DNA from: Rhodocyclaceae bacterium
GTDB lineage: Bacteria > Pseudomonadota > Gammaproteobacteria > Burkholderiales > CAIKXV01
Assembly (NCBI GenBank): GCA_020248265.1
Contig: JADCHX010000012.1
Location: 20,378 to 84,377 of the forward strand
Direction: 5' to 3'
DNA length: 64,000 bases
Position numbers and translations under genes: made by a program. Positions 2,709 through 63,806 of this stretch are shown here, one piece after another. Position 1 is the first letter of the stretch, and every line of letters begins with the position of its first letter. Under the pieces are notes generated by a model. The model saw only the letters and a program-made list of their open reading frames with translations. It had not been told where the DNA came from and did not search any database.

Positions 2709-4928
2709 GTGCAACTGAGCGATGCCGCCCGCGCGGCCGGTATCGCGACTGGTTACCACGACATCTGGGGCCAGTGGCGCGACGTGCCGGACGATACGTT
2801 GATCGCGCTGCTCGATGCCCTCGGTTATCACGGCGCCCCCGATGCAAGGGCGCTCGCGCAGTCGGTCCAGTCGCAGCGGCGCTCCGAAGAACGGCGTCTG
2901 TTCGCCGAAACGGTAGTGGTTGAGGCCGGTGCGGCGGTGGCTATCCCGCTGTCGCGAGCCGGCTTGCGTGCGCTTGCGGGTGATGACTGGCCGGCAGTCG
3001 TCGCCCGGGTCGACTGGACGGTGTCGACCGAATCGGGTGCACGGCTGTCGGGCTCCTGCATGCCGTCCGAGCCGGATCCCCTGCTTGCGCTGCCCGCACT
3101 GCCGGCGGGCCGGCATAGGCTGTCCGTGTGCGTCGAAGGCATGCCGGTGCCCCCGGGCGGCGTGCCGTGCCAGCCTGCGGCGTCTGCCGTGCTGCTGTGT
3201 GCGCCGCCGCGCTGCCATCTTCCTGAGCCCCTGCGCGAAAGCGGCCGGCAGTGGGGAATCGCGGTGCAACTCTACGGCCTGCGTTCGCTGCGCAACTGGG
3301 GTATCGGCGACTTTACCGACCTGGGCTTGCTGGCCGAGTCCGCCGCAGCCTTGGGGGCCGGAGTGGTCGGGTTGAACCCGCTGCATGCGCTTGCGCTGGA
3401 CCGTCCCGAGCAGGCCAGTCCGTACTCGGCGGTGAGCCGCCTGTTCCTGCATCCGCTCTACATCGATCCCGAACGCATCGACGTGTTCACCGATCCGGCG
3501 GTCGTACCCGCGCTCTGCCGGCAGTTCGCACCCGAGGCGGAGCGGGCACGCCTGCGTGCCGCCGAGCGGGTCGATTACCCGGGCGTCGCACGATTGAAGC
3601 TTGCGGCGATGCGCGCGATCTACGACGCATTCGTACGCGACGAGTGCGCCGGAACGGGCCCGGGTTCGGCCGCTCATGCGCCAGGCCGATGGCAGCGCGA
3701 GTTCGAGGCGTTCGCCGCGTCGAACGACGCGCTGCGCCTGCATGCCACCTACCAGTCGATCCAGTCCACGCTGCATCGGGCGGATTCTTCGGTCTGGGGC
3801 TGGCCCTGCTGGCCTCTGCCGCTACGCGACCCGTCGGGTGAAGCCGTGGCGCAGTGGCAGAGGGAGCATGCGCACGACACCGGGTTCCATGTGTTCCTCG
3901 AATGGCAGGCATCGCGCCAGTGGCAGCAGGTGCGTGCCTGCACCACGCGCGCCGGCATCCTGCTGTACGGCGATCTGGCGCTCGGCGCCGACCGTGGCGG
4001 TTCGGAAGTCTGGGCTGCACAGGGCGCGCATGCGCTGGCCACCAGTGCCGGGTGCCCGCCGGACGACTTCAACCTGCAGGGGCAGGACTGGGGTCTGCCG
4101 CCACTGCGCCCCGACCACCTGCGTGCCGATGGGTGCGCGGCCTTCCGGTCGGTGGTTGCGGCCAGCATGGCCCGCTTCGACGCGCTGCGCCTCGATCATG
4201 TGATGAGCCTGATGCGGCTGTTCTGGATACCACCCGGGGCAGGCCCGGTGGCCGGCGCATATGTGGATTATCCGTTCGAGGCGATGCTGGCGACGCTGCG
4301 CATCGAAAGCGAACGTCATGCGTGCATGGTCATCGGCGAGGACCTCGGTACGGTCCAGCCGGCGGTGCGCGAAGGGCTGCGGTGCGCCGACGTGCTGTCC
4401 TACCGGTTGCTGGTATTCGAGCGTGACGGGACGGATCACTTCCGGCGACCGCACGATTATCCGCGGCTGGCGCTGGCTTCCATCGGCAGCCACGACCTGT
4501 CGCCATTGCAGGGGTGGTGGGTCGGCGATGACCTCGACCAGCGGCGCTGCCTCGGCCTGCTCGACGAGGGCCAGTACGAACGCTTCGCCTCGGACCGCAG
4601 TCAGGCACGCGCGGCGCTGCTCGGCGCGCTCGCCGAAGCCGGGTTATTGCCGGAGGGTGAGTCCACGGATGCCGGTCGCTATGCGGTGCTGCCGCCCGGC
4701 CTGGTCGACGCAGTGCATACCTTCCTCGCTCGCACCGCCTCGATGTGGACGATGGTCAATCCGGAGGACGTGTTCGACCTGGTCGAGGCGACCAACCTGC
4801 CCGGCACGACCTTCGAGCACCCCAACTGGTCGCGCCGGCTGCCGGTACCGGTCGAGGAGTGGGTCGCGCATCCGCGCTGGCGGGCTGTCGCGGGAACCCA
4901 GCGCGAGCGCTCCGGCGGGCTGCGCTGA
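2709..4928 (+). CDS. malQ: 4-alpha-glucanotransferase (amylomaltase, GH77)
   Basis: GH77 signature strings are present: FLHPLYIDPE, LRLDHVMSLMRLFWIP, VIGEDLGTV, GSHDLSPLQGWW, NLPGTTFEHPNW. The track ORF starts at 2544. I prefer GTG 2709 (VQLSDAARAAGIATGYHDIWG...) because the recognisable N-terminus begins there. Confidence 0.85.
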   Translation: MQLSDAARAAGIATGYHDIWGQWRDVPDDTLIALLDALGYHGAPDARALAQSVQSQRRSEERRLFAETVVVEAGAAVAIPLSRAGLRALAGDDWPAVVARVDWTVSTESGARLSGSCMPSEPDPLLALPALPAGRHRLSVCVEGMPVPPGGVPCQPAASAVLLCAPPRCHLPEPLRESGRQWGIAVQLYGLRSLRNWGIGDFTDLGLLAESAAALGAGVVGLNPLHALALDRPEQASPYSAVSRLFLHPLYIDPERIDVFTDPAVVPALCRQFAPEAERARLRAAERVDYPGVARLKLAAMRAIYDAFVRDECAGTGPGSAAHAPGRWQREFEAFAASNDALRLHATYQSIQSTLHRADSSVWGWPCWPLPLRDPSGEAVAQWQREHAHDTGFHVFLEWQASRQWQQVRACTTRAGILLYGDLALGADRGGSEVWAAQGAHALATSAGCPPDDFNLQGQDWGLPPLRPDHLRADGCAAFRSVVAASMARFDALRLDHVMSLMRLFWIPPGAGPVAGAYVDYPFEAMLATLRIESERHACMVIGEDLGTVQPAVREGLRCADVLSYRLLVFERDGTDHFRRPHDYPRLALASIGSHDLSPLQGWWVGDDLDQRRCLGLLDEGQYERFASDRSQARAALLGALAEAGLLPEGESTDAGRYAVLPPGLVDAVHTFLARTASMWTMVNPEDVFDLVEATNLPGTTFEHPNWSRRLPVPVEEWVAHPRWRAVAGTQRERSGGLR

Positions 4929-4935
4929 GCGCGTA

Positions 4936-6024
4936 TCAGTCCGCCTTCGCGCCGGACACGCGCGCGACTTCCGCCCATCTGGCGATCTCGCGTCGGATGA
5001 AGGCACCGAACTGTTCCGGAGTCTGCGCGGCCGACGGCGTGGCACCCTGCTGGGCGAATCGTTCGCGCACCTCCGGCGATGCAACGGCCTTGAGCACCTC
5101 GAGGTTCAGTCGCTGCACGATCGGGCGCGGCGTGTCGGCCGGGGCCAGCATGCCGAACCAGATCATCAGTTCATAGCCGGGCAGGCCCGCTGCCTCGACG
5201 ACCGTCGGCAACTCGGGCAGGATCGGCAACCGGGCCCGCGAGGTGACGGCCAGCGCGCGCACCTTGCCGGAACGGATATGCGGTATCGCCGTTGGCAGCG
5301 GTTCGATCTGGATCTGCACCTGGCCGCCGATCAGGTCGGCGATCGCGGCCGCGCCCCCCTTGTACGGCACATGGACCATGTCGATCTTGGCCAGTGCCTT
5401 CAGCAGTTCGGCACCCATGTGCTGCGAGGTGCCGGCGCCTGCCGAGGCGTAATTGAGCGAGCCCGGCTTCGCGCGGGCCAGCGCGATCAGATCCCGCATC
5501 GAGCCGGCCGCAACCGAGGGCGTGACCAGCACGACGCTCGGCACTTCGGCCAGCGGGGCGATCGGTGCGAACGCCTTGACCGGGTCGTAGGGCAGATTGC
5601 GGTACAGCGCCGGGCTGACCGCGACGGTACTGGTCGCGCCGAAGGCGAGGGTGTAGCCGTCCGGATTGGCGCGCGCGGCGATGCCCAGCCCGAGCGTGCC
5701 ACCGGCGCCCGCCCGATTGTCGATGATGACCGTCTGCTTCATCTGTTCGCCGAGGCTCTGGCCGATGATGCGCGCGACCAGGTCGTTGATGCCGCCCGGC
5801 GGGAACGGCACGACCAGCCGGATCGGGCGATCGGGATAGCTGTTCGCGGCCGGTGGCTGCGCGGCGGCGGCCATGCCCGCCGTGCCGAACGTGGCAAGCG
5901 TCGACAGCGTGACGATCCAAGCGGCGGCCATGGCCACCTGCACTGCACGGGTGCGGCGAGTCCGGCCGCTGATGGTGTCGACACAACCGGTGGCGCCGCT
6001 GCCTGCTGCCATGCTCATCTCCAT
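4936..6024 (-). CDS. Tripartite tricarboxylate transporter substrate-binding protein (Bug/TctC family)
   Basis: A signal peptide is followed by YPDRPIRLVVPFPPGGINDLVARI..., NRAGAGG, YASAGAGTSQHM and VPYKGGAAA, all typical Bug-family motifs. The start is trimmed from track ORF 6378 to Met 6024, just upstream of the signal peptide. Confidence 0.8.
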   Translation of the reverse strand: MEMSMAAGSGATGCVDTISGRTRRTRAVQVAMAAAWIVTLSTLATFGTAGMAAAAQPPAANSYPDRPIRLVVPFPPGGINDLVARIIGQSLGEQMKQTVIIDNRAGAGGTLGLGIAARANPDGYTLAFGATSTVAVSPALYRNLPYDPVKAFAPIAPLAEVPSVVLVTPSVAAGSMRDLIALARAKPGSLNYASAGAGTSQHMGAELLKALAKIDMVHVPYKGGAAAIADLIGGQVQIQIEPLPTAIPHIRSGKVRALAVTSRARLPILPELPTVVEAAGLPGYELMIWFGMLAPADTPRPIVQRLNLEVLKAVASPEVRERFAQQGATPSAAQTPEQFGAFIRREIARWAEVARVSGAKAD

Positions 6025-7005: not shown

Positions 7006-7599
7006 TCAGCCGTACAGACGACTGTGTTTCGGCACGCGCGCCATCAGGTATTCCATCTGGTCGACGAGGATGCGGCGGTTCTGAAGGATCATATGCTCAT
7101 GCCGGTTGGGCACATACGGCAGGTAGAGCAGCGGCATGCGCGCGGCCTCGGGCGTGCGGTTGTCTTTCTTGCTGTTGCACGCCCTGCAGGCGGTCACCAC
7201 GTTCATCCAGCGGTCTTCGCCGCCGCGCGACAGCGGCACGATATGGTCGCGTGACAGTTCCCGCTCGCGCAGGCGGTCGCCGCAGTACGCACAGACCTGC
7301 CGGTCGCGCACGAACAGCGCTGCGTTGATCAGTGCCGGTTCGCGCCGGAACTCCCTCGCGAACGAGCCCGACCCCTTGATCGCGATGATGCTCGCGGTCG
7401 AGAGTTCGGAGCGCTCTCCAGTGCTGCGCGACAGGCCGCCGTGGTAGGTGCGCACGATGCTGCCGATCGACCATGCCACCTGGTGCTTGGCGTGGTAGGT
7501 GATCGCCTCTTCGACCAGCAACCAGCGACGCGGTATCCCGCCTGGATCGACTTCCAGGATCAGCGGCTCACCTCGGGCGCGACTACCGAATGCAGTCAT
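7006..7599 (-). CDS. HNH endonuclease family protein
   Basis: HNH/zinc motif CAYCG...SRDHIVPLSRGGEDRWMNVVTACRACNSKKDNRTP. Confidence 0.8.
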   Translation of the reverse strand: MTAFGSRARGEPLILEVDPGGIPRRWLLVEEAITYHAKHQVAWSIGSIVRTYHGGLSRSTGERSELSTASIIAIKGSGSFAREFRREPALINAALFVRDRQVCAYCGDRLRERELSRDHIVPLSRGGEDRWMNVVTACRACNSKKDNRTPEAARMPLLYLPYVPNRHEHMILQNRRILVDQMEYLMARVPKHSRLYG

Positions 7600-57547: not shown

Positions 57548-59131
<1,584 letters not shown>

Positions 59132-59176: not shown

Positions 59177-60766
59177 ATGACAGCCGCGAGCCATGACTGC
59201 ATCCTGATCCTCGATTTCGGTTCGCAGGTGACCCAGCTGATCGCACGCCGCGTGCGAGAGGCGAACGTGTACTGTGAAGTGCATCCGTGCGACCTGCCGG
59301 AGGCCGAGATCCGCCGGATCGCGCCCAAGGGCGTGATCCTGTCCGGCAGCCACATGTCGGCCTACGAAGAGTCGACCGATCGCGCGCCCCAGACGGTATT
59401 CGACCTCGGCGTGCCGGTGCTGGGTATCTGTTACGGCATGCAGACGATGGCGCAGCAACTGGGCGGCAAGGTCGAGAGCGGCGCGAACCGCGAGTTCGGC
59501 TTCGCCGAAGTTCGGGCGCGCGGCCACACATGGCTGCTCGACGGCATCGAGGATGCACGCAACGCCGAAGGGCACGGCCTGCTCAAGGTCTGGATGAGCC
59601 ACGGCGACAAGGTCACCGAACTGCCGCCTGGCTTCAAGCTGATGGCCTCCACCGACAGCTGCCCGATCGCAGGCATGGCCGACGAGGCACGCAACTTCTA
59701 CGGCGTGCAGTTCCACCCCGAGGTGACGCATACGCTGCAGGGCGGGCGGATTCTCGAGCGCTTCGTGATCGACATCTGCGAATGCGCGCCCGACTGGGTG
59801 ATGAGCGACTACGTCGCCGAGGCGAGCGAGCAGGTGAAAGCGCGGGTGGGCAGCGAAGAGGTGATCCTCGGCCTGTCCGGCGGCGTCGATTCGGCGGTGG
59901 CCGCTGCCCTCATCCACAAGGCGATTGGCGACCGCCTGACCTGCATCTTCGTCGATACAGGACTGCTGCGGCTGGGCGAGGGCGACCAGGTGATGGAGAC
60001 GCTGAACCGCCACCTCGGTGTGAAGGTGATCCGCATCGACGCCGGCCCACGCTTCCTCGGCGCATTGGAAGGCTGCGCCGACCCGGAAGCCAAGCGCAAG
60101 ATCATCGGTCGCGAGTTCGTGCATGTGTTCCAGGAAGAAGCCGCGAAGCTGCCGAACGCGAAGTGGCTGGCGCAGGGCACGATCTATCCGGACGTGATCG
60201 AGTCGGCCGGGGCCAAGACGAAGAAGGCCACGACCATCAAGAGCCACCACAACGTCGGTGGCCTGCCAGACACGCTGCACCTGAAGCTGCTCGAGCCGCT
60301 GCGCGAACTGTTCAAGGACGAGGTGCGCGAGCTCGGCCTCGCACTCGGGCTGCCGCGCGAGATGGTGTTCCGGCATCCATTCCCGGGACCGGGGCTGGGC
60401 GTGCGCATCCTCGGCGAAGTGAAGCCCAAGTATGCAGAACTGCTGCGCCGCGCCGATGCGATCTTCATCGACGAACTGCGCAAGACCTCGCACGAAGGAG
60501 TGAGCTGGTACGACCTGACCAGCCAGGCCTTCGCCGTGTTCCTGCCGGTGAAGGCGGTGGGCGTGATGGGCGACGGACGCACGTACGAGTATGTGGTTGC
60601 GCTGCGCGCGGTGCAGACCCAGGATTTCATGACTGCGCACTGGGCGCACCTGCCGCACGAACTGCTCGGGCGCGTGTCGAACCGGATCATCAATGAAGTA
60701 CGAGGGATAAACCGGGTCGTTTACGACATATCGGGGAAGCCGCCGGCGACGATCGAGTGGGAGTAG
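59177..60766 (+). CDS. guaA: GMP synthase (glutamine-hydrolysing)
   Basis: GATase domain ([14 protein letters not shown]), ATP-PPase SGGVDS motif, and C-terminal dimerisation domain ending ...PPATIEWE. Confidence 0.95.
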
Positions 60767-60767
60767 G
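60753..60767 (+). repeat. Left direct repeat (guaA 3' end)
   Basis: TCGAGTGGGAGTAGG, identical to 63328-63342. Confidence 0.8.
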
Positions 60768-60921
60768 TCGTCGAGGGCTGAATTAGAGCGTATTAAAAAT
60801 CAACAGGTTATGTTTTTTATCACCTATCCGAGAGACATCATGAACAGGATAGAGGTCACGGTCTAAGTACATGAATCGAATAGGGATGGGTCCTTTTTGA
60901 CGCTTCCTTCAACAAAAAGGG

Positions 60922-61087
60922 TTGACGTCAGATTGACGGTATTCTTGACGGTAGAAATTCGCGCCGATGTAGTTGCCGATAATCTACCGTCACACGAACT
61001 CCGGACCTGACGGCAGAAAAATCGACAGCAATCGCTGGCAAAACATGAAGTTGCCGCTTGTGTAGCCTGAGATTTTTCGTGACGGTA
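60922..61087. repeat. Left cluster of TGACGGTA motifs
   Basis: TGACGGTA occurs at 60934, 60946 and 61080. An inverted copy lies at 60985-60992. Variants are TGACGGCA at 61008 and TGACGTCA at 60923. Several copies extend to tTGACGGTAGAA. Confidence 0.8.
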
Positions 61088-61178
61088 GAAGTTGTGGTTC
61101 ATGGAAAAAGGCATCCACGGCCAACGTCGCCTCTATCCGTTGCTGGAGTTTTCGCCTCGCAGGGAAGGGGCCTTAGCG

Positions 61179-61221
61179 TTAGTACCAAAAACAATAAACG
61201 ATAACATTGGATATGTTATCG
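61179..61221 (+). promoter_or_regulatory. Candidate promoter with overlapping inverted-repeat operator of the wHTH/NTase operon
   Basis: TTAGTA (61179-61184), 17 nt spacer, TAACAT (61202-61207). The perfect 9-bp inverted repeat CGATAACAT-TGGAT-ATGTTATCG (61199-61221) covers the -10 element. Confidence 0.45.
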
Positions 61222-61257
61222 TGCAGGGTCCTTGTTTCACTTAGGCCCTCAATCAGC

Positions 61258-62241
61258 ATGGAAGCCGCCGTTCGCGCGTACCTGAAGAACACGCTCGGAA
61301 TCGACGCTCCGACCACCCTCTGGTCGGGCGTGGGCAGCTTGCCGTACTTCCTCGTGGATGCCTTCGAACTGAAGGCTCTGGCGATCCTGGGTCACCCCGT
61401 CCTGCTCGCCATCGACAAGCGAGCCGATCGCCCCGGCCTTGCCAGCATTCGCGCGCAGATCGACAAGATCCGCGAGGTAACCGGGCTCCCGGTGCTTTAC
61501 GCAACCGAGGCACTGGCCTCCTACGAACGCAAGCGGCTCATCGAGCAGAAGGTACCCTTCGTCGTCCCTGGCAACCAGCTCTATCTGCCCGACCTTGGCG
61601 TGGATCTGCGGGAGTACTTTCGCAAGCCGGCGACGCAGCCCCAGAGCGAGCTCAGCCCGGCCGCCCAGGCCATGCTGATCGCAGTGCTGCTGGGCAAGCC
61701 GTGGCGGGGGGAGTGGGAGCCTGCCGAGGTGCTCGGCCGTCTCGGCTATACCGCCATGACCGCCTCGCGCGCCTCGCGCGAGCTGGTGGCAACCGGGATA
61801 GCGCGTTCGGACAACGTCGCGAGGGTGCGGCGGCTGAAGACCGAGCGCACCGCCCGCGAGACCTGGGAGCATATCAAGCCCCTGCTGCGCAACCCCGTGA
61901 AACGCCGGGTCTGGGTGCTGCCGACCAGCGATCTTGTCGTGCCGGAGCTCAGGCTTGCGGGTCTCAGCGCCCTTGCGCGGCAGTCGATGCTGGTCGAACC
62001 CTCTTGGCCGACTTACGCGCTCAGCCCTTCGCAATGGAAGCTCGCTTCCCAGCAGGGCGCGAAGACGGTGCCCGAGCCTGAGCCCGGGGCCCTCCAGATG
62101 GAGCTTTGGAACTACAGCCCGGCCTTGGTGCCGGACACTTCGCTGGTCGATCCGCTGTCGCTGATGCTGAGCCTGCAGAGCGATGGCGACGATCGGGTAC
62201 AGCAGGCGCTGGCCGAGCTTGAGGAGCACTTGCCGTGGTGA
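61258..62241 (+). CDS. Winged-helix DNA-binding protein, AbiEi-like antitoxin candidate (atypically long)
   Basis: 327 aa counted from ATG 61258 (the track ORF starts at 61207). A central MarR/AbiEi-like wHTH region is present (SPAAQAMLIAVLL...EVLGRLGYTAMTASRASRELVATGIA). It overlaps the downstream NTase gene by 4-7 nt. Confidence 0.55.
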   Translation: MEAAVRAYLKNTLGIDAPTTLWSGVGSLPYFLVDAFELKALAILGHPVLLAIDKRADRPGLASIRAQIDKIREVTGLPVLYATEALASYERKRLIEQKVPFVVPGNQLYLPDLGVDLREYFRKPATQPQSELSPAAQAMLIAVLLGKPWRGEWEPAEVLGRLGYTAMTASRASRELVATGIARSDNVARVRRLKTERTARETWEHIKPLLRNPVKRRVWVLPTSDLVVPELRLAGLSALARQSMLVEPSWPTYALSPSQWKLASQQGAKTVPEPEPGALQMELWNYSPALVPDTSLVDPLSLMLSLQSDGDDRVQQALAELEEHLPW

Positions 62242-63011
62242 AAGGCCTGGATGTCTTTCGGAGCTGGTTCGCCGCGCATGGGGATGAGTTCGTCCTGATC
62301 GGCGGTACGGCCGCAACCCTCGCCCTAGAAGAGGCGGGGCTTGAGTTCCGCGCCACGAAGGATCTCGACATCGTGCTGCATGTGGAGGCTCTGACCCCGC
62401 GCTTTGGCGAGGTGTTCTGGAGGTTCATCGATGCGGGTGGCTACGAGATCCGCCAGGCCGCCGACACGGGCAGGCCGGTCTTCTATCGATTCCAGAAGCC
62501 GGGCAACCCGAGCTTTCCGGCGATGCTGGAACTGTTCAGCCGCGCGCCCGAAGGCCTCACGCTTGCGCAGGGCAGTCACCTGACCCCCATCCCGATCGAT
62601 GAGGCGGTGGAAAGCCTTTCGGCGATCCTTCTTGACGAGGACTACTACGACTTCATCCTGACCGGCAGGCGCGATCTCGATGGTCTGCCTTGGGTGGGCG
62701 AGGATCGGTTGATCCCGCTGAAGGCGAGCGCCTGGCTGGATCTTGGGCAGCGCCTCGCCCGCGGCGAGCAGGTGGATTCGCGCAATGTGCGCAAGCACGC
62801 GAACGACATCCTTCGACTGTCCCAACTGCTCGCACCCGAGGTTCGGGTGCCGCTGGTGCCCAGGATCGCCCAGGACTTGAGCCGCTTCCTCGATGCCATC
62901 GAGACCGATCCGTCGATTACGCCGGCGAGCGTAGGCGTGCGCGGTTCCCTGAAGGACGTGATCGGCCGGATCGCGCTGGCCTACTTGCTCGATCGGGGCG
63001 CTCAGCCATGA
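62235..63011 (+). CDS. Nucleotidyltransferase-fold protein, AbiEii-like toxin candidate
   Basis: Minimal NTase signature LIGGTAATLALEEAGLEFRATKDLDIVL (GG...DxD) and a later K...A...R...KHANDILRL block resembling AbiEii motif III. The start is GTG 62235 or GTG 62238. Confidence 0.6.
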   Translation: MVKGLDVFRSWFAAHGDEFVLIGGTAATLALEEAGLEFRATKDLDIVLHVEALTPRFGEVFWRFIDAGGYEIRQAADTGRPVFYRFQKPGNPSFPAMLELFSRAPEGLTLAQGSHLTPIPIDEAVESLSAILLDEDYYDFILTGRRDLDGLPWVGEDRLIPLKASAWLDLGQRLARGEQVDSRNVRKHANDILRLSQLLAPEVRVPLVPRIAQDLSRFLDAIETDPSITPASVGVRGSLKDVIGRIALAYLLDRGAQP

Positions 63012-63034
63012 CGCGGACGGTCAAGGTCGGCTGT

Positions 63035-63266
63035 TGACGGTAGAAAAAGCGCGTGAAAATCACGTTCAGACAAGCACTTAGATTGCTCGATGACGGTACG
63101 ACGAAAGCTGGTCGGAGGCTCGAAAGAGCAGGGTGGATGCTGTGCTTCGATGACCTCGCAAGGCCTGATAGTCCTCGATAGATCCCGAAAGGTGTATCCC
63201 GCGCCGATCGCCCGGAAACCCGCGCCAATGCTGAACCTCATCAAGATGACGGTATCTTTGACGGTA
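63035..63266 (+). repeat. Right cluster of TGACGGTA motifs
   Basis: TGACGGTA occurs at 63035, 63091, 63247 and 63259, all on the + strand. The last two are 12 bp apart, as are the two at 60934/60946. Confidence 0.8.
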
Positions 63267-63327
63267 TCCAGTAGCCTTCCGCCCAAGAACGCATGGCGCA
63301 ACAAGGACTTAGCGGCTCAATTGATGT

Positions 63328-63342
63328 TCGAGTGGGAGTAGG
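63328..63342 (+). repeat. Right direct repeat (vestigial guaA 3' end)
   Basis: TCGAGTGGGAGTAGG, preceded by codons reading ...FEWE-stop. Confidence 0.8.
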
Positions 63343-63458: not shown

Positions 63459-63806
63459 ATGGGTGAAACGCTACTGAAGTTGGTCGTTGTCGGTTTCGGC
63501 ATCTGGTTTCTCGTGGGTCACGTGTCCGATGCCCTCACGCGAGGTTGCGCGCGCCTGCGCGGAACCAGGGAGTTCACCGTGGCGCAGCCATGGAGGTTCT
63601 CAGTCGCCCTGGGGCTGAACATTGCGTTCGGCCTCTTGCTGTTCAGCGTCCCCTTCTTCGCTGACGCCGTGGTTTGGGCCGTTCCGGGTTGGATCATGCA
63701 CCGTGCAACGACGGCAGGCCTTCCCTGGTTGGCGGTGATGGTCACCGTCACGGTGTATGTCGTCGCTGCCACGCGCATGCTTGTCTTCATGGCCACGCGG
63801 AAGTGA
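63459..63806 (+). CDS. Hypothetical small membrane protein
   Basis: 115 aa with 3-4 hydrophobic helices and no recognisable family. It overlaps a minus-strand partial ORF running in from the window edge, so the coding call is tentative. Confidence 0.35.
   Translation: MGETLLKLVVVGFGIWFLVGHVSDALTRGCARLRGTREFTVAQPWRFSVALGLNIAFGLLLFSVPFFADAVVWAVPGWIMHRATTAGLPWLAVMVTVTVYVVAATRMLVFMATRK

Follow-up and report, generated by a model that had tools for sequence, protein, structure and literature searches.

An AbiE-like two-gene module with a putative remote AbiEii-type nucleotidyltransferase and an unusual winged-helix partner on a small guaA-borne island of a Rhodocyclaceae bacterium

What kind of system is encoded by two overlapping genes, one for a long winged-helix protein and one for a predicted nucleotidyltransferase (NTase), that lie downstream of guaA in a 64,000-nucleotide stretch of DNA from a Rhodocyclaceae bacterium (GenBank assembly GCA_020248265.1, contig JADCHX010000012.1, positions 20,378 to 84,377 of the forward strand; the whole stretch is called the window here)? 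An initial annotation had taken these genes, here gene 1 and gene 2, for a module resembling AbiE, whose components AbiEi and AbiEii form a type IV toxin-antitoxin (TA) and abortive infection system, known from Streptococcus agalactiae and Lactococcus (Dy et al. 2014, PMC3985639). Gene 1 and gene 2 are a real, intact and widely conserved two-gene module. The reading that we favour, and consider moderately probable, is that of a TA or abortive infection module of the AbiE/DUF1814 type with a partner unrelated to AbiEi, in which autorepression is combined with NTase toxicity and with neutralisation of the toxin, possibly through its residue Thr41.

Both open reading frames (ORFs) were found where they had been placed, with the overlap as it had been described, and their layout is the following (aa, amino acids).

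61258-62241, plus strand: gene 1, ATG start, TGA stop, intact ORF of 327 aa
62235-63011, plus strand: gene 2, GTG start, TGA stop, intact ORF of 258 aa
62221-62241, plus strand: coupling signal, with the Shine-Dalgarno sequence GAGGAG at 62221-62226, the gene 2 GTG at 62235 and the gene 1 TGA at 62239-62241

The overlap, GTGGTGA (62235-62241), measures 7 nt when the first GTG is counted as the start of gene 2 and 4 nt when the second is, and the Shine-Dalgarno sequence sits 8 nt ahead of the gene 2 start. Related loci and their gene calls show this 7-nt overlap again, in the form (A/G)TGGTGA. The AbiE-like architecture that had been proposed, with the regulator gene first, the NTase gene second, translational coupling and a palindromic operator over the promoter, was recovered.

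A scan anchored on gene 1, with one genome per species, gave 35 loci, 33 of them informative. Gene 2 lies directly 3' of gene 1 with the same overlap in 20 of the 33, is reduced to fragments in three and is missing from ten; the 20 paired loci span Burkholderiales, Geobacter, Planctomycetota, Acidobacteriota, Spirochaetota, Omnitrophota, Kuenenia and Gammaproteobacteria. The pair extends over at least 10 phyla as well as plasmids, and it is adjacent in all five plasmids examined, including those of Campylobacterota, Bacillota and Actinomycetota. On four distant plasmids, from Sulfurospirillum, Edwardsiella, Latilactobacillus and Collinsella, the protein encoded ahead of the NTase has 333-377 aa and is each time a near-full-length homologue of gene 1 (E 1e-18 to 1e-35). 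Plasmid carriers also include Pseudomonas megaplasmids, sphingomonads, Methylocella, Shinella and others, the copies being annotated 'hypothetical protein' almost throughout. When the search was anchored on gene 2 instead, the long partner stood upstream with the 7-nt overlap in ten of the ten places examined, and the pair is therefore conserved as a unit in other genomes, as the proposed module implied.

The two genes are lost unequally. No gene 2 without gene 1 was seen among the loci anchored on gene 1, the five plasmids or the ten places anchored on gene 2, and gene 1 stays intact where gene 2 is truncated (L012, L019, L020 and L052) or replaced. Since gene 2 never stands by itself, whereas gene 1 often does or has a decayed gene 2 next to it, gene 1 is excluded as the toxin; the inverse assignment, in which gene 1 would be a toxin and gene 2 an MNT-like antitoxin, was ruled out because gene 1 often occurs without gene 2. 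This asymmetry of loss fits what would be expected if gene 2 were harmful without gene 1, and, by analogy with its characterized relatives, gene 2 is probably the toxin. The pair is found as solitary insertions between housekeeping genes, on megaplasmids and at the attR end of an element that resembles the integrative and conjugative elements (ICEs), and its contexts (HipBA, restriction-modification, RelE/Xre, mobile elements) are typical of TA and defence systems. A separate observation concerns Geobacter pelophilus (L054, 1-16765), in which HipB/HipA stand directly upstream of the pair within a defence island, with an N6-methyltransferase, a DEAD helicase, a protein with a FokI cleavage domain and several large unannotated genes as neighbours.

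The assignment of gene 2 was approached through its motifs and through sequence profiles. The residues concerned are these.

62301-62306, plus strand: motif I, G23-G24
62349-62369, plus strand: motif II loop, R39-A-T41-K42-D43-L-D45
62529-62531, plus strand: E99
62721-62735, plus strand: motif III, K163-x-x-A166-W167
62793-62807, plus strand: motif IV, K187-H188-x-x-D191

Motifs I to IV of DUF1814 are all present, motif IV with His where canonical proteins have Asp, and twelve residues (G23, G24, T41, D43, D45, E51, E99, K163, A166, K187, H188 and D191) are invariant in the gene 2 family, as represented by 26 sequences from many phyla. The signature GG-x17-DLD that had been reported is correct in its GG and its DLD and needs amending in its spacing, since 18 residues separate G23-G24 from D43-L-D45. 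Compared with the Pfam AbiEii family (PF08843), gene 2 aligns over residues 11-73 with an E value of 8e-4 and 19.8 bits, the gathering score being 22.5. AbiEii is matched by 44 of 46 gene 2 relatives, with a best E of 2e-5, and the homologue on the Sulfurospirillum plasmid, which PGAP names an AbiEii/AbiGii family protein, aligns to model positions 10-170. An hhalign comparison of the gene 2 family with nine canonical AbiEii proteins, taken from plasmids and from locus L007, gave an E value of 3.8e-5 and a probability of 71% over motifs I-II; after distant gene 2 members had been added, the alignment (E 5.2e-5) covered 134 columns with motifs I-III in register and K163 aligned to the canonical motif III lysine. 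The Pfam and hhalign profiles support the supposed NTase fold at the level of the superfamily, and they indicate that gene 2 is a remote member of the DUF1814/AbiEii superfamily, outside the family as Pfam now defines it. The long-spaced hGG...DxD, the lysine of motif III and the basic and acidic residues of motif IV are shared with AbiEii, in contrast to the marginal score against PF08843 and the 18 residues between GG and DxD.

Could gene 2 be a benign enzyme? Its layout, an NTase core with a helical C-terminal half in about 255 aa, resembles that of small-molecule nucleotidyltransferases, and some sources annotate relatives of gene 1 as MarR family regulators, so that gene 2 might be a non-toxic modifier of a small molecule or an antibiotic and gene 1 its MarR-like regulator. 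We regard this as very unlikely, however, given that AbiEii is the only family that gene 2 matches repeatedly, that its motif II loop, like its motifs III and IV, has DUF1814 character, that the contexts are TA and defence islands and mobile elements, and that decay is confined to gene 2, which fits a toxin better than a benign enzyme.

A further point of reference for a toxic gene 2 is MenA/MenT of Mycobacterium tuberculosis, in which the MenT proteins are DUF1814 tRNA nucleotidyltransferase toxins (PMC11375011, PMC7450476). MenT3 phosphorylates itself on S78, with R76 and K79 binding the gamma-phosphate (PMC11375011). The gene 2 segment R39-x-T41-K42, with its invariant T41, stands in the same register as MenT3 R76-x-S78-K79, and the catalytic lysine and an R-x-H...D segment near motif IV are also common to both. 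T41 lies two residues ahead of D43, the predicted first catalytic Asp, the counterpart of which in MenT3 is D80. In contrast, the gene 2 profile finds no MenT, AbiEii or other solved structure even at E 10, and gene 1 is unrelated to MenA1, MenA3 and MenA4.

The more unusual component is gene 1. Its AlphaFold2 model (mean predicted local distance difference test score, pLDDT, 88) has three domains, listed here with the linker from the same model and with the most conserved motif of the family alignment.

61258-61614: N-terminal alpha/beta domain, residues 1-119
between the N-terminal domain and the winged helix: disordered linker
61645-61887: central winged helix, residues ~134-210
61897-62238: C-terminal alpha/beta domain, residues 214-327
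61522-61620: most conserved motif, YxRKRLIEQKVPFVVPGNQxYLPxLGxDLRE, residues 89-121

The position of the winged helix-turn-helix (wHTH) in the middle of the protein, as first noticed from the sequence, agrees with this model. Residues 89-121 are conserved between phyla even at the DNA level and are looser in the most distant members. The family is large: a cut-off of E<=1e-3 yields 3,814 cluster representatives and one of E<=1e-30 yields 1,788, and among the 150 representatives listed nearly all are full length (318-362 aa). The ratio of nonsynonymous to synonymous substitution rates (dN/dS) for gene 1 is 0.17-0.35 between diverged copies and 0.17-0.49 against the closest relatives.

Gene 1 of the window has no family match in Pfam, NCBIfam, PADLOC or PHROGs, a search of PDB sequences with its protein returned nothing relevant, and searches of PHROGs and Rfam gave no match. 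When 58 relatives of gene 1 were compared with Pfam (25 of 34 families listed, the remainder with at most one member each), 35 matched MarR_2 and 24 matched MarR; the recurrent matches are to MarR-type and other winged-helix families only, and the AbiEi families of Pfam are matched by none of the 58 relatives or of five distant members. Against eight canonical AbiEi proteins, hhalign gave a probability of 2%, and domain by domain the probability was at most 0.4%, except for the wHTH (10.7%). The domain-wise profile comparison ruled out an internal duplication relating the N- and C-terminal domains of gene 1, and likewise a kinship of these with the C-terminal domain of AbiEi or with AbiEii. 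Taken together, the profiles indicate that gene 1 is not an AbiEi homologue.

Moreover, gene 1 has about 330 aa and a central wHTH between two flanking domains that match no database family, whereas AbiEi, of about 200 aa, carries its wHTH at the N-terminus, followed by a single C-terminal domain, in line with the remark that the antitoxin-like partner is larger and differently organised. Two marks of AbiE membership are lacking, gene 2 scoring below the PF08843 threshold and gene 1 not being AbiEi (COG5340; AbiEi_1/3/4), and the suggestion of a distinct subfamily agrees with a remote NTase whose partner appears not to be homologous to AbiEi. Foldseek searches with the gene 1 model against the PDB were confident for the winged helix only (SqrR, SarA, TubR) and gave weak XisH-like matches (probability 0.87, E 0.02), while in BFVD the model matched one uncharacterised Dickeya phage protein (E 7e-5, 126 columns) and, weakly, a 'restriction endonuclease'. 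One of the flanking domains might have an endonuclease-like fold, for which these matches provide no more than a lead.

Upstream of gene 1 lies the element through which the module would be regulated.

61176-61241, unstranded: operator/promoter region, with palindrome, half-sites and candidate extended -10
61202-61206 and 61214-61218: inner half-sites, TAACA and TGTTA
61183-61187 and 61233-61237: outer half-sites, degenerate, TACCA and TGTTT
61214-61215 and 61217-61222: candidate extended -10, TG and TATCGT, within the right arm of the palindrome

The palindrome, ACGATAACAT-N5-ATGTTATCGT, is perfect, occupies 61198-61222, 36 nt upstream of gene 1, and continues in its right arm as GTGCA to 61225. 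It had been described as a 9-bp inverted repeat, which is real and perfect and slightly longer than stated, the arms being of 10 bp. It occurs once in the window and in none of 100 shuffles even when up to three mismatches are allowed. In 32 of the 33 loci, from many phyla, the operator is kept in its sequence, in its 7-nt central spacer and in its distance from the start codon, with the consensus TAACA-N8-TGCACgATAACA-N7-TGTTAnnGTGCA-N8-tGTTA at 38-44 nt 5' of the gene 1 start. In the consensus of the 33 loci the left arm carries a -35-like TTGCAC and the right arm an extended -10, TGnTAnnGT, and a protein bound there would therefore sit on the promoter. The outer-left GTAACA is retained in L001, the closest relative of the window. 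A copy on a Pseudomonas plasmid has GTAAAC half-sites together with an altered recognition helix in gene 1, a single case of co-variation that fits direct recognition of the operator by this helix.

Because the operator is conserved throughout the family, we strongly infer that the gene 1 protein would repress its own operon. AbiE is likewise bicistronic, with a wHTH regulator followed by an NTase, carries promoter inverted repeats that fit autorepression and is found on mobile elements; the present module differs from it in having a single extended dyad with four TAACA half-sites, the sequence of which is conserved across phyla. In L006-L009 the original ATG of gene 1 has been lost (CTCGAT), and the ORF now begins at an ATG within the right half of the operator, so that the product has 343 aa, as in P0016; the right-arm GTGCA has there decayed to CTGCG.

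From these observations a course of action can be proposed for the favoured TA or abortive infection module. The gene 1 protein would bind the dyad operator through its central winged helix and repress the operon, and the 7-nt overlap would couple the translation of gene 2 to that of gene 1. Gene 2, predicted to be an NTase of the Pol-beta fold, would stop growth in the manner of MenT and AbiEii, either by adding nucleotides to the acceptor ends of tRNA or through some comparable modification dependent on nucleoside triphosphates. One or both alpha/beta domains of gene 1 would neutralise gene 2 by complex formation, by auto-phosphorylation of Thr41 or by both, in analogy to MenA1/MenA3 and AbiEi, this neutralisation being the weakest step of the proposal. 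As cargo at the attR end of elements that target guaA, the module may help to keep the element in its host, make phage infections abort, or do both.

Several findings weigh against this interpretation. Gene 2 is below the threshold of PF08843, an NCBIfam scan with it found nothing relevant, and the PADLOC models of AbiEii matched it only at E > 0.01, so that the module is not called AbiE. The acidic residue at the column of the canonical third catalytic Asp is not conserved in the gene 2 family, for which E99 is a candidate substitute. The AlphaFold2 model of gene 2, built from a 46-sequence alignment at 68-96% identity, is poor (pLDDT 58), its Foldseek matches are meaningless (best E 0.44), and neither the protein nor, even at E 10, the family profile found a solved relative among all PDB sequences; because of the poor model, the fold assignment is one of sequence profiles. 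A generic sigma-70 scan of the window copy found no consensus promoter, and there the -35-like part and both outer half-sites are degenerate; the overlap of the repeat with a -10 element that had been claimed thus stands in the 33-locus comparison, with an extended -10 built into the right arm, and did not reappear in the generic scan. Protein-level antitoxicity of gene 1 is argued by analogy, because no similarity to AbiEi is detectable. Finally, gene 1 is intact upstream of self-sufficient TA pairs and of other cargo, which points to a role without gene 2.

This last point deserves closer attention. Gene 1 of the sister islands L005-L009 shares 82-85% identity with the window copy. At its stop codon the resemblance to the window breaks off, to return in the right arm of the island. 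Different genes occupy the slot in between, and further cargo follows gene 1 elsewhere.

L005, slot between gene 1 stop and right arm: a SoFic-like Fic gene
L006, L007 and L009, same slot: canonical AbiEi_4 and AbiEii
L008, same slot: HigB/HigA
L016, following gene 1: MNT/HEPN
L025, following gene 1: a gene for an ATPase_2/DUF234 protein

The orphan copies of gene 1 remain intact, with dN/dS of 0.2-0.4 against 0.17-0.27 in more diverged paired comparisons, the exception being the near-identical L006-L007 pair (0.89, with very few substitutions), and they remain under purifying selection. As gene 1 is separable from gene 2 (ten of the 33 loci), a dedicated antitoxin is not the sole reading.

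Gene 1 could instead act only as a sensor and repressor of whatever toxic or defence cargo lies downstream, gene 2 being held by repression or needing a trigger, with no antitoxin step at the protein level; the BrxR/CapW-type regulators of defence loci follow a comparable logic. The break of similarity at the gene 1 stop codon in L005-L009, the intact gene 1 and the retained operator before AbiEi/AbiEii, HigBA, Fic, MNT/HEPN and ATPase_2/DUF234 cargo, and the resemblance of orphan to paired dN/dS all argue in this direction, and the flanking alpha/beta domains could bind ligands, for which the sole support is a weak ACT-like match. Nevertheless, most loci carry gene 2 with the invariant 7-nt overlap, which couples both products stoichiometrically, and gene 2 is never found without gene 1; most of the replacement cargoes own an antitoxin, so that gene 1 may be a harmless orphan there, and in L006-L009 the operator right arm and the original start codon have decayed. 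An 'orphaned antitoxin-repressor' is the simpler reading of these copies, since coupling is conserved and most replacement cargoes bring their own antitoxin. We therefore hold a purely regulatory gene 1 to be unlikely, and retain it at that level because the orphan gene 1 is intact, constrained and found upstream of varied cargo. A wider proposal, rather doubtful at present, is that the gene 1 family forms a new class of three-domain regulator-antitoxins that shares one operator between phyla and joins up with toxic effectors of various kinds. The flanking domains would then either neutralise the DUF1814 NTase by a mechanism of separate evolutionary origin from that of AbiEi and MenA, for instance through induced auto-phosphorylation of Thr41, or sense an infection signal that releases repression.

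Has the pair been catalogued before? Dy et al. (2014, PMC3985639) listed COG4861-COG4849, an uncharacterised combination of a wHTH regulator unrelated to COG5340 with an NTase of the DUF1814 superfamily, in which motif III of COG4849 is KLxAaxxR. The corresponding segment of gene 2, K163-A-S-A166-W167-L-D-L170, matches the K, A and aromatic positions and not the L and R. PF09952 (AbiEi_2), the Pfam family equated with COG4861 (PMC7251935), was matched by none of the 63 gene 1 relatives scanned, within the families listed, and MenT1, said to belong to COG4849, was not found by the gene 2 profile. The present pair may be the COG4861-COG4849 pair; the K-x-x-A-W of gene 2 at motif III speaks for this, and the negative results with PF09952 and MenT1 speak against it.

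Systems of this kind have been described before and a COG label may exist for the pair, while the family is large and no database names it. The DUF1814 NTase toxins (AbiEii, MenT) are a current topic in research on translation-targeting toxins and phage defence, and their known partners are of the AbiEi/MenA3 type or the small MenA1 type, to which gene 1 adds a very widespread partner, with thousands of clusters, that occurs in at least ten phyla and on plasmids and ICEs. Censuses of defence and TA systems miss the pair because Pfam, NCBIfam, PADLOC and PGAP naming do not see it. Conservation of an operator and promoter across phyla is unusual for TA systems and offers a handle for electrophoretic mobility shift assays and reporter work, and the exchange of cargo behind a constant gene 1 is a natural experiment on a dedicated antitoxin against a general regulator.

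How did the module come to lie in the window? It is carried by a small island in the 3' end of guaA, with the following features.

57569-59131: guaB, upstream of the module
59177-60766: guaA, upstream of the module
60755-60762, plus strand: attL core GAGTGGGA in the last guaA codons, within the direct repeat TCGAGTGGGAGTAGG at 60753-60767
60934-61091: left-arm TGACGGTA repeats at 60934, 60946, 60985 (minus strand) and 61080, with the variant TGACGGCA at 61008
61090-61171, plus strand: 3' stub of a gene for an AAA-ATPase (88% to L003 and L004 by blastn), with the ORF 61092-61244
63035-63266, plus strand: right-arm TGACGGTA repeats at 63035, 63091, 63247 and 63259
63330-63337, plus strand: attR core GAGTGGGA at the right end of the 2.6-kb island, inside the second TCGAGTGGGAGTAGG (63328-63342)

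The 15-nt direct repeat TCGAGTGGGAGTAGG bounds the 2.6-kb island, and G+C drops to 0.44-0.52 just within its left end. Between the cores (60767-63328) there is no integrase gene, only gene 1, gene 2 and the ATPase stub. The sequence TGACGGTA has nine exact copies in the window against 0.58 expected, eight of them in the island arms, and a tandem pair stands at each island end (60934/60946 and 63247/63259); the right arm is conserved in L005-L009 with TGACGGTA copies at equivalent positions. These repeats are candidate arm-type recombinase sites. The possibility that gene 1 is an iteron-type replication initiator was rejected, as the repeats share no sequence with the operator and occupy both island arms beside the att cores; in those distant loci for which the upstream sequence was read they were not seen 5' of gene 1, no motif search of those loci having been made.

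The core GAGTGGGA is the core recombination site of the integrases of the GIsul2 family, which target the 3' end of guaA, and CR2-sul2, an att-bounded unit without an integrase, is moved in trans by the GIsul2 integrase (PMC9376610). The present island is alike in its insertion at the guaA 3' end, in having GAGTGGGA at both ends and in being a short att-bounded unit without integrase; in contrast, no integrase has been identified in the window, the cargo is the NTase pair and not sul2, and excision in the window is inferred only. In L001, a metagenome-assembled genome of Burkholderiales, the same 2.6-kb island is 97-100% identical, while guaA is only ~75% identical; identity climbs from ~75% to ~99% at the attL core and the right junction breaks within GAGTGG, so the island has spread recently, presumably moving between genera through an integrase in trans, by analogy with CR2-sul2.

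L004 has a complete ATPase gene (398 aa) immediately upstream of the pair, and the C-terminus of this ORF (4701-5897), ...RRRLYPLLEFSPRR..., matches the window ORF 61092-61244. The pair lies there at the right end of a larger ICE-like element, which also has a canonical-looking AbiE pair and carries candidate conjugation-type genes, judged by their translations. The comparison suggests that the ATPase stub marks the deletion joint at which the mini-island formed, and that this mini-island arose by a deletion that spared the pair and the two att arms. It might be argued from this stub, and from the degenerate -35-like part and outer half-sites of the window copy, that the module itself is a decaying, non-functional remnant of a larger guaA-integrated element deleted to its ends. 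Both ORFs are nevertheless intact with every invariant residue present, the high identity of the island beside a ~75% identical guaA speaks for recent spread, and the gene 1 dN/dS is 0.17-0.49 against its closest relatives, which leaves this explanation very unlikely. The intact module on an att-flanked, integrase-less island of 2.6 kb in two genera is a compact model of movement in trans by guaA-targeting integrases.

Some further observations concern the att cores and the surroundings of the islands. A third GAGTGGGA lies at 61711-61718 within gene 1, where it encodes RGEWE, and is conserved in L001-L009 because this protein sequence is conserved; the four copies of GAGTGGGA in the window are near chance, and the internal one may have arisen by coincidence or may act as a cryptic att site, comparable to the attLR of GIsul2. 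In L002 a copy of the right arm with an att core (3009-3352) is found upstream of gene 1, and in L006 (~7262-7352) an extra TGACGG pair with a GAGTGGGA core is found downstream; guaA islands may thus stand in tandem arrays at these two loci. In L055, L058, L049-L051, L056 and L057 an orphan AbiEi_4 gene precedes a second lineage of the pair, the gene 1 of which is 61% identical, and in L055 and L058 this block stands just downstream of guaA with a RelE/Xre pair. In the window, an apparently hydrophobic ORF of 115 aa (63459-63806), which probably encodes a membrane protein, lies on the host side just outside attR.

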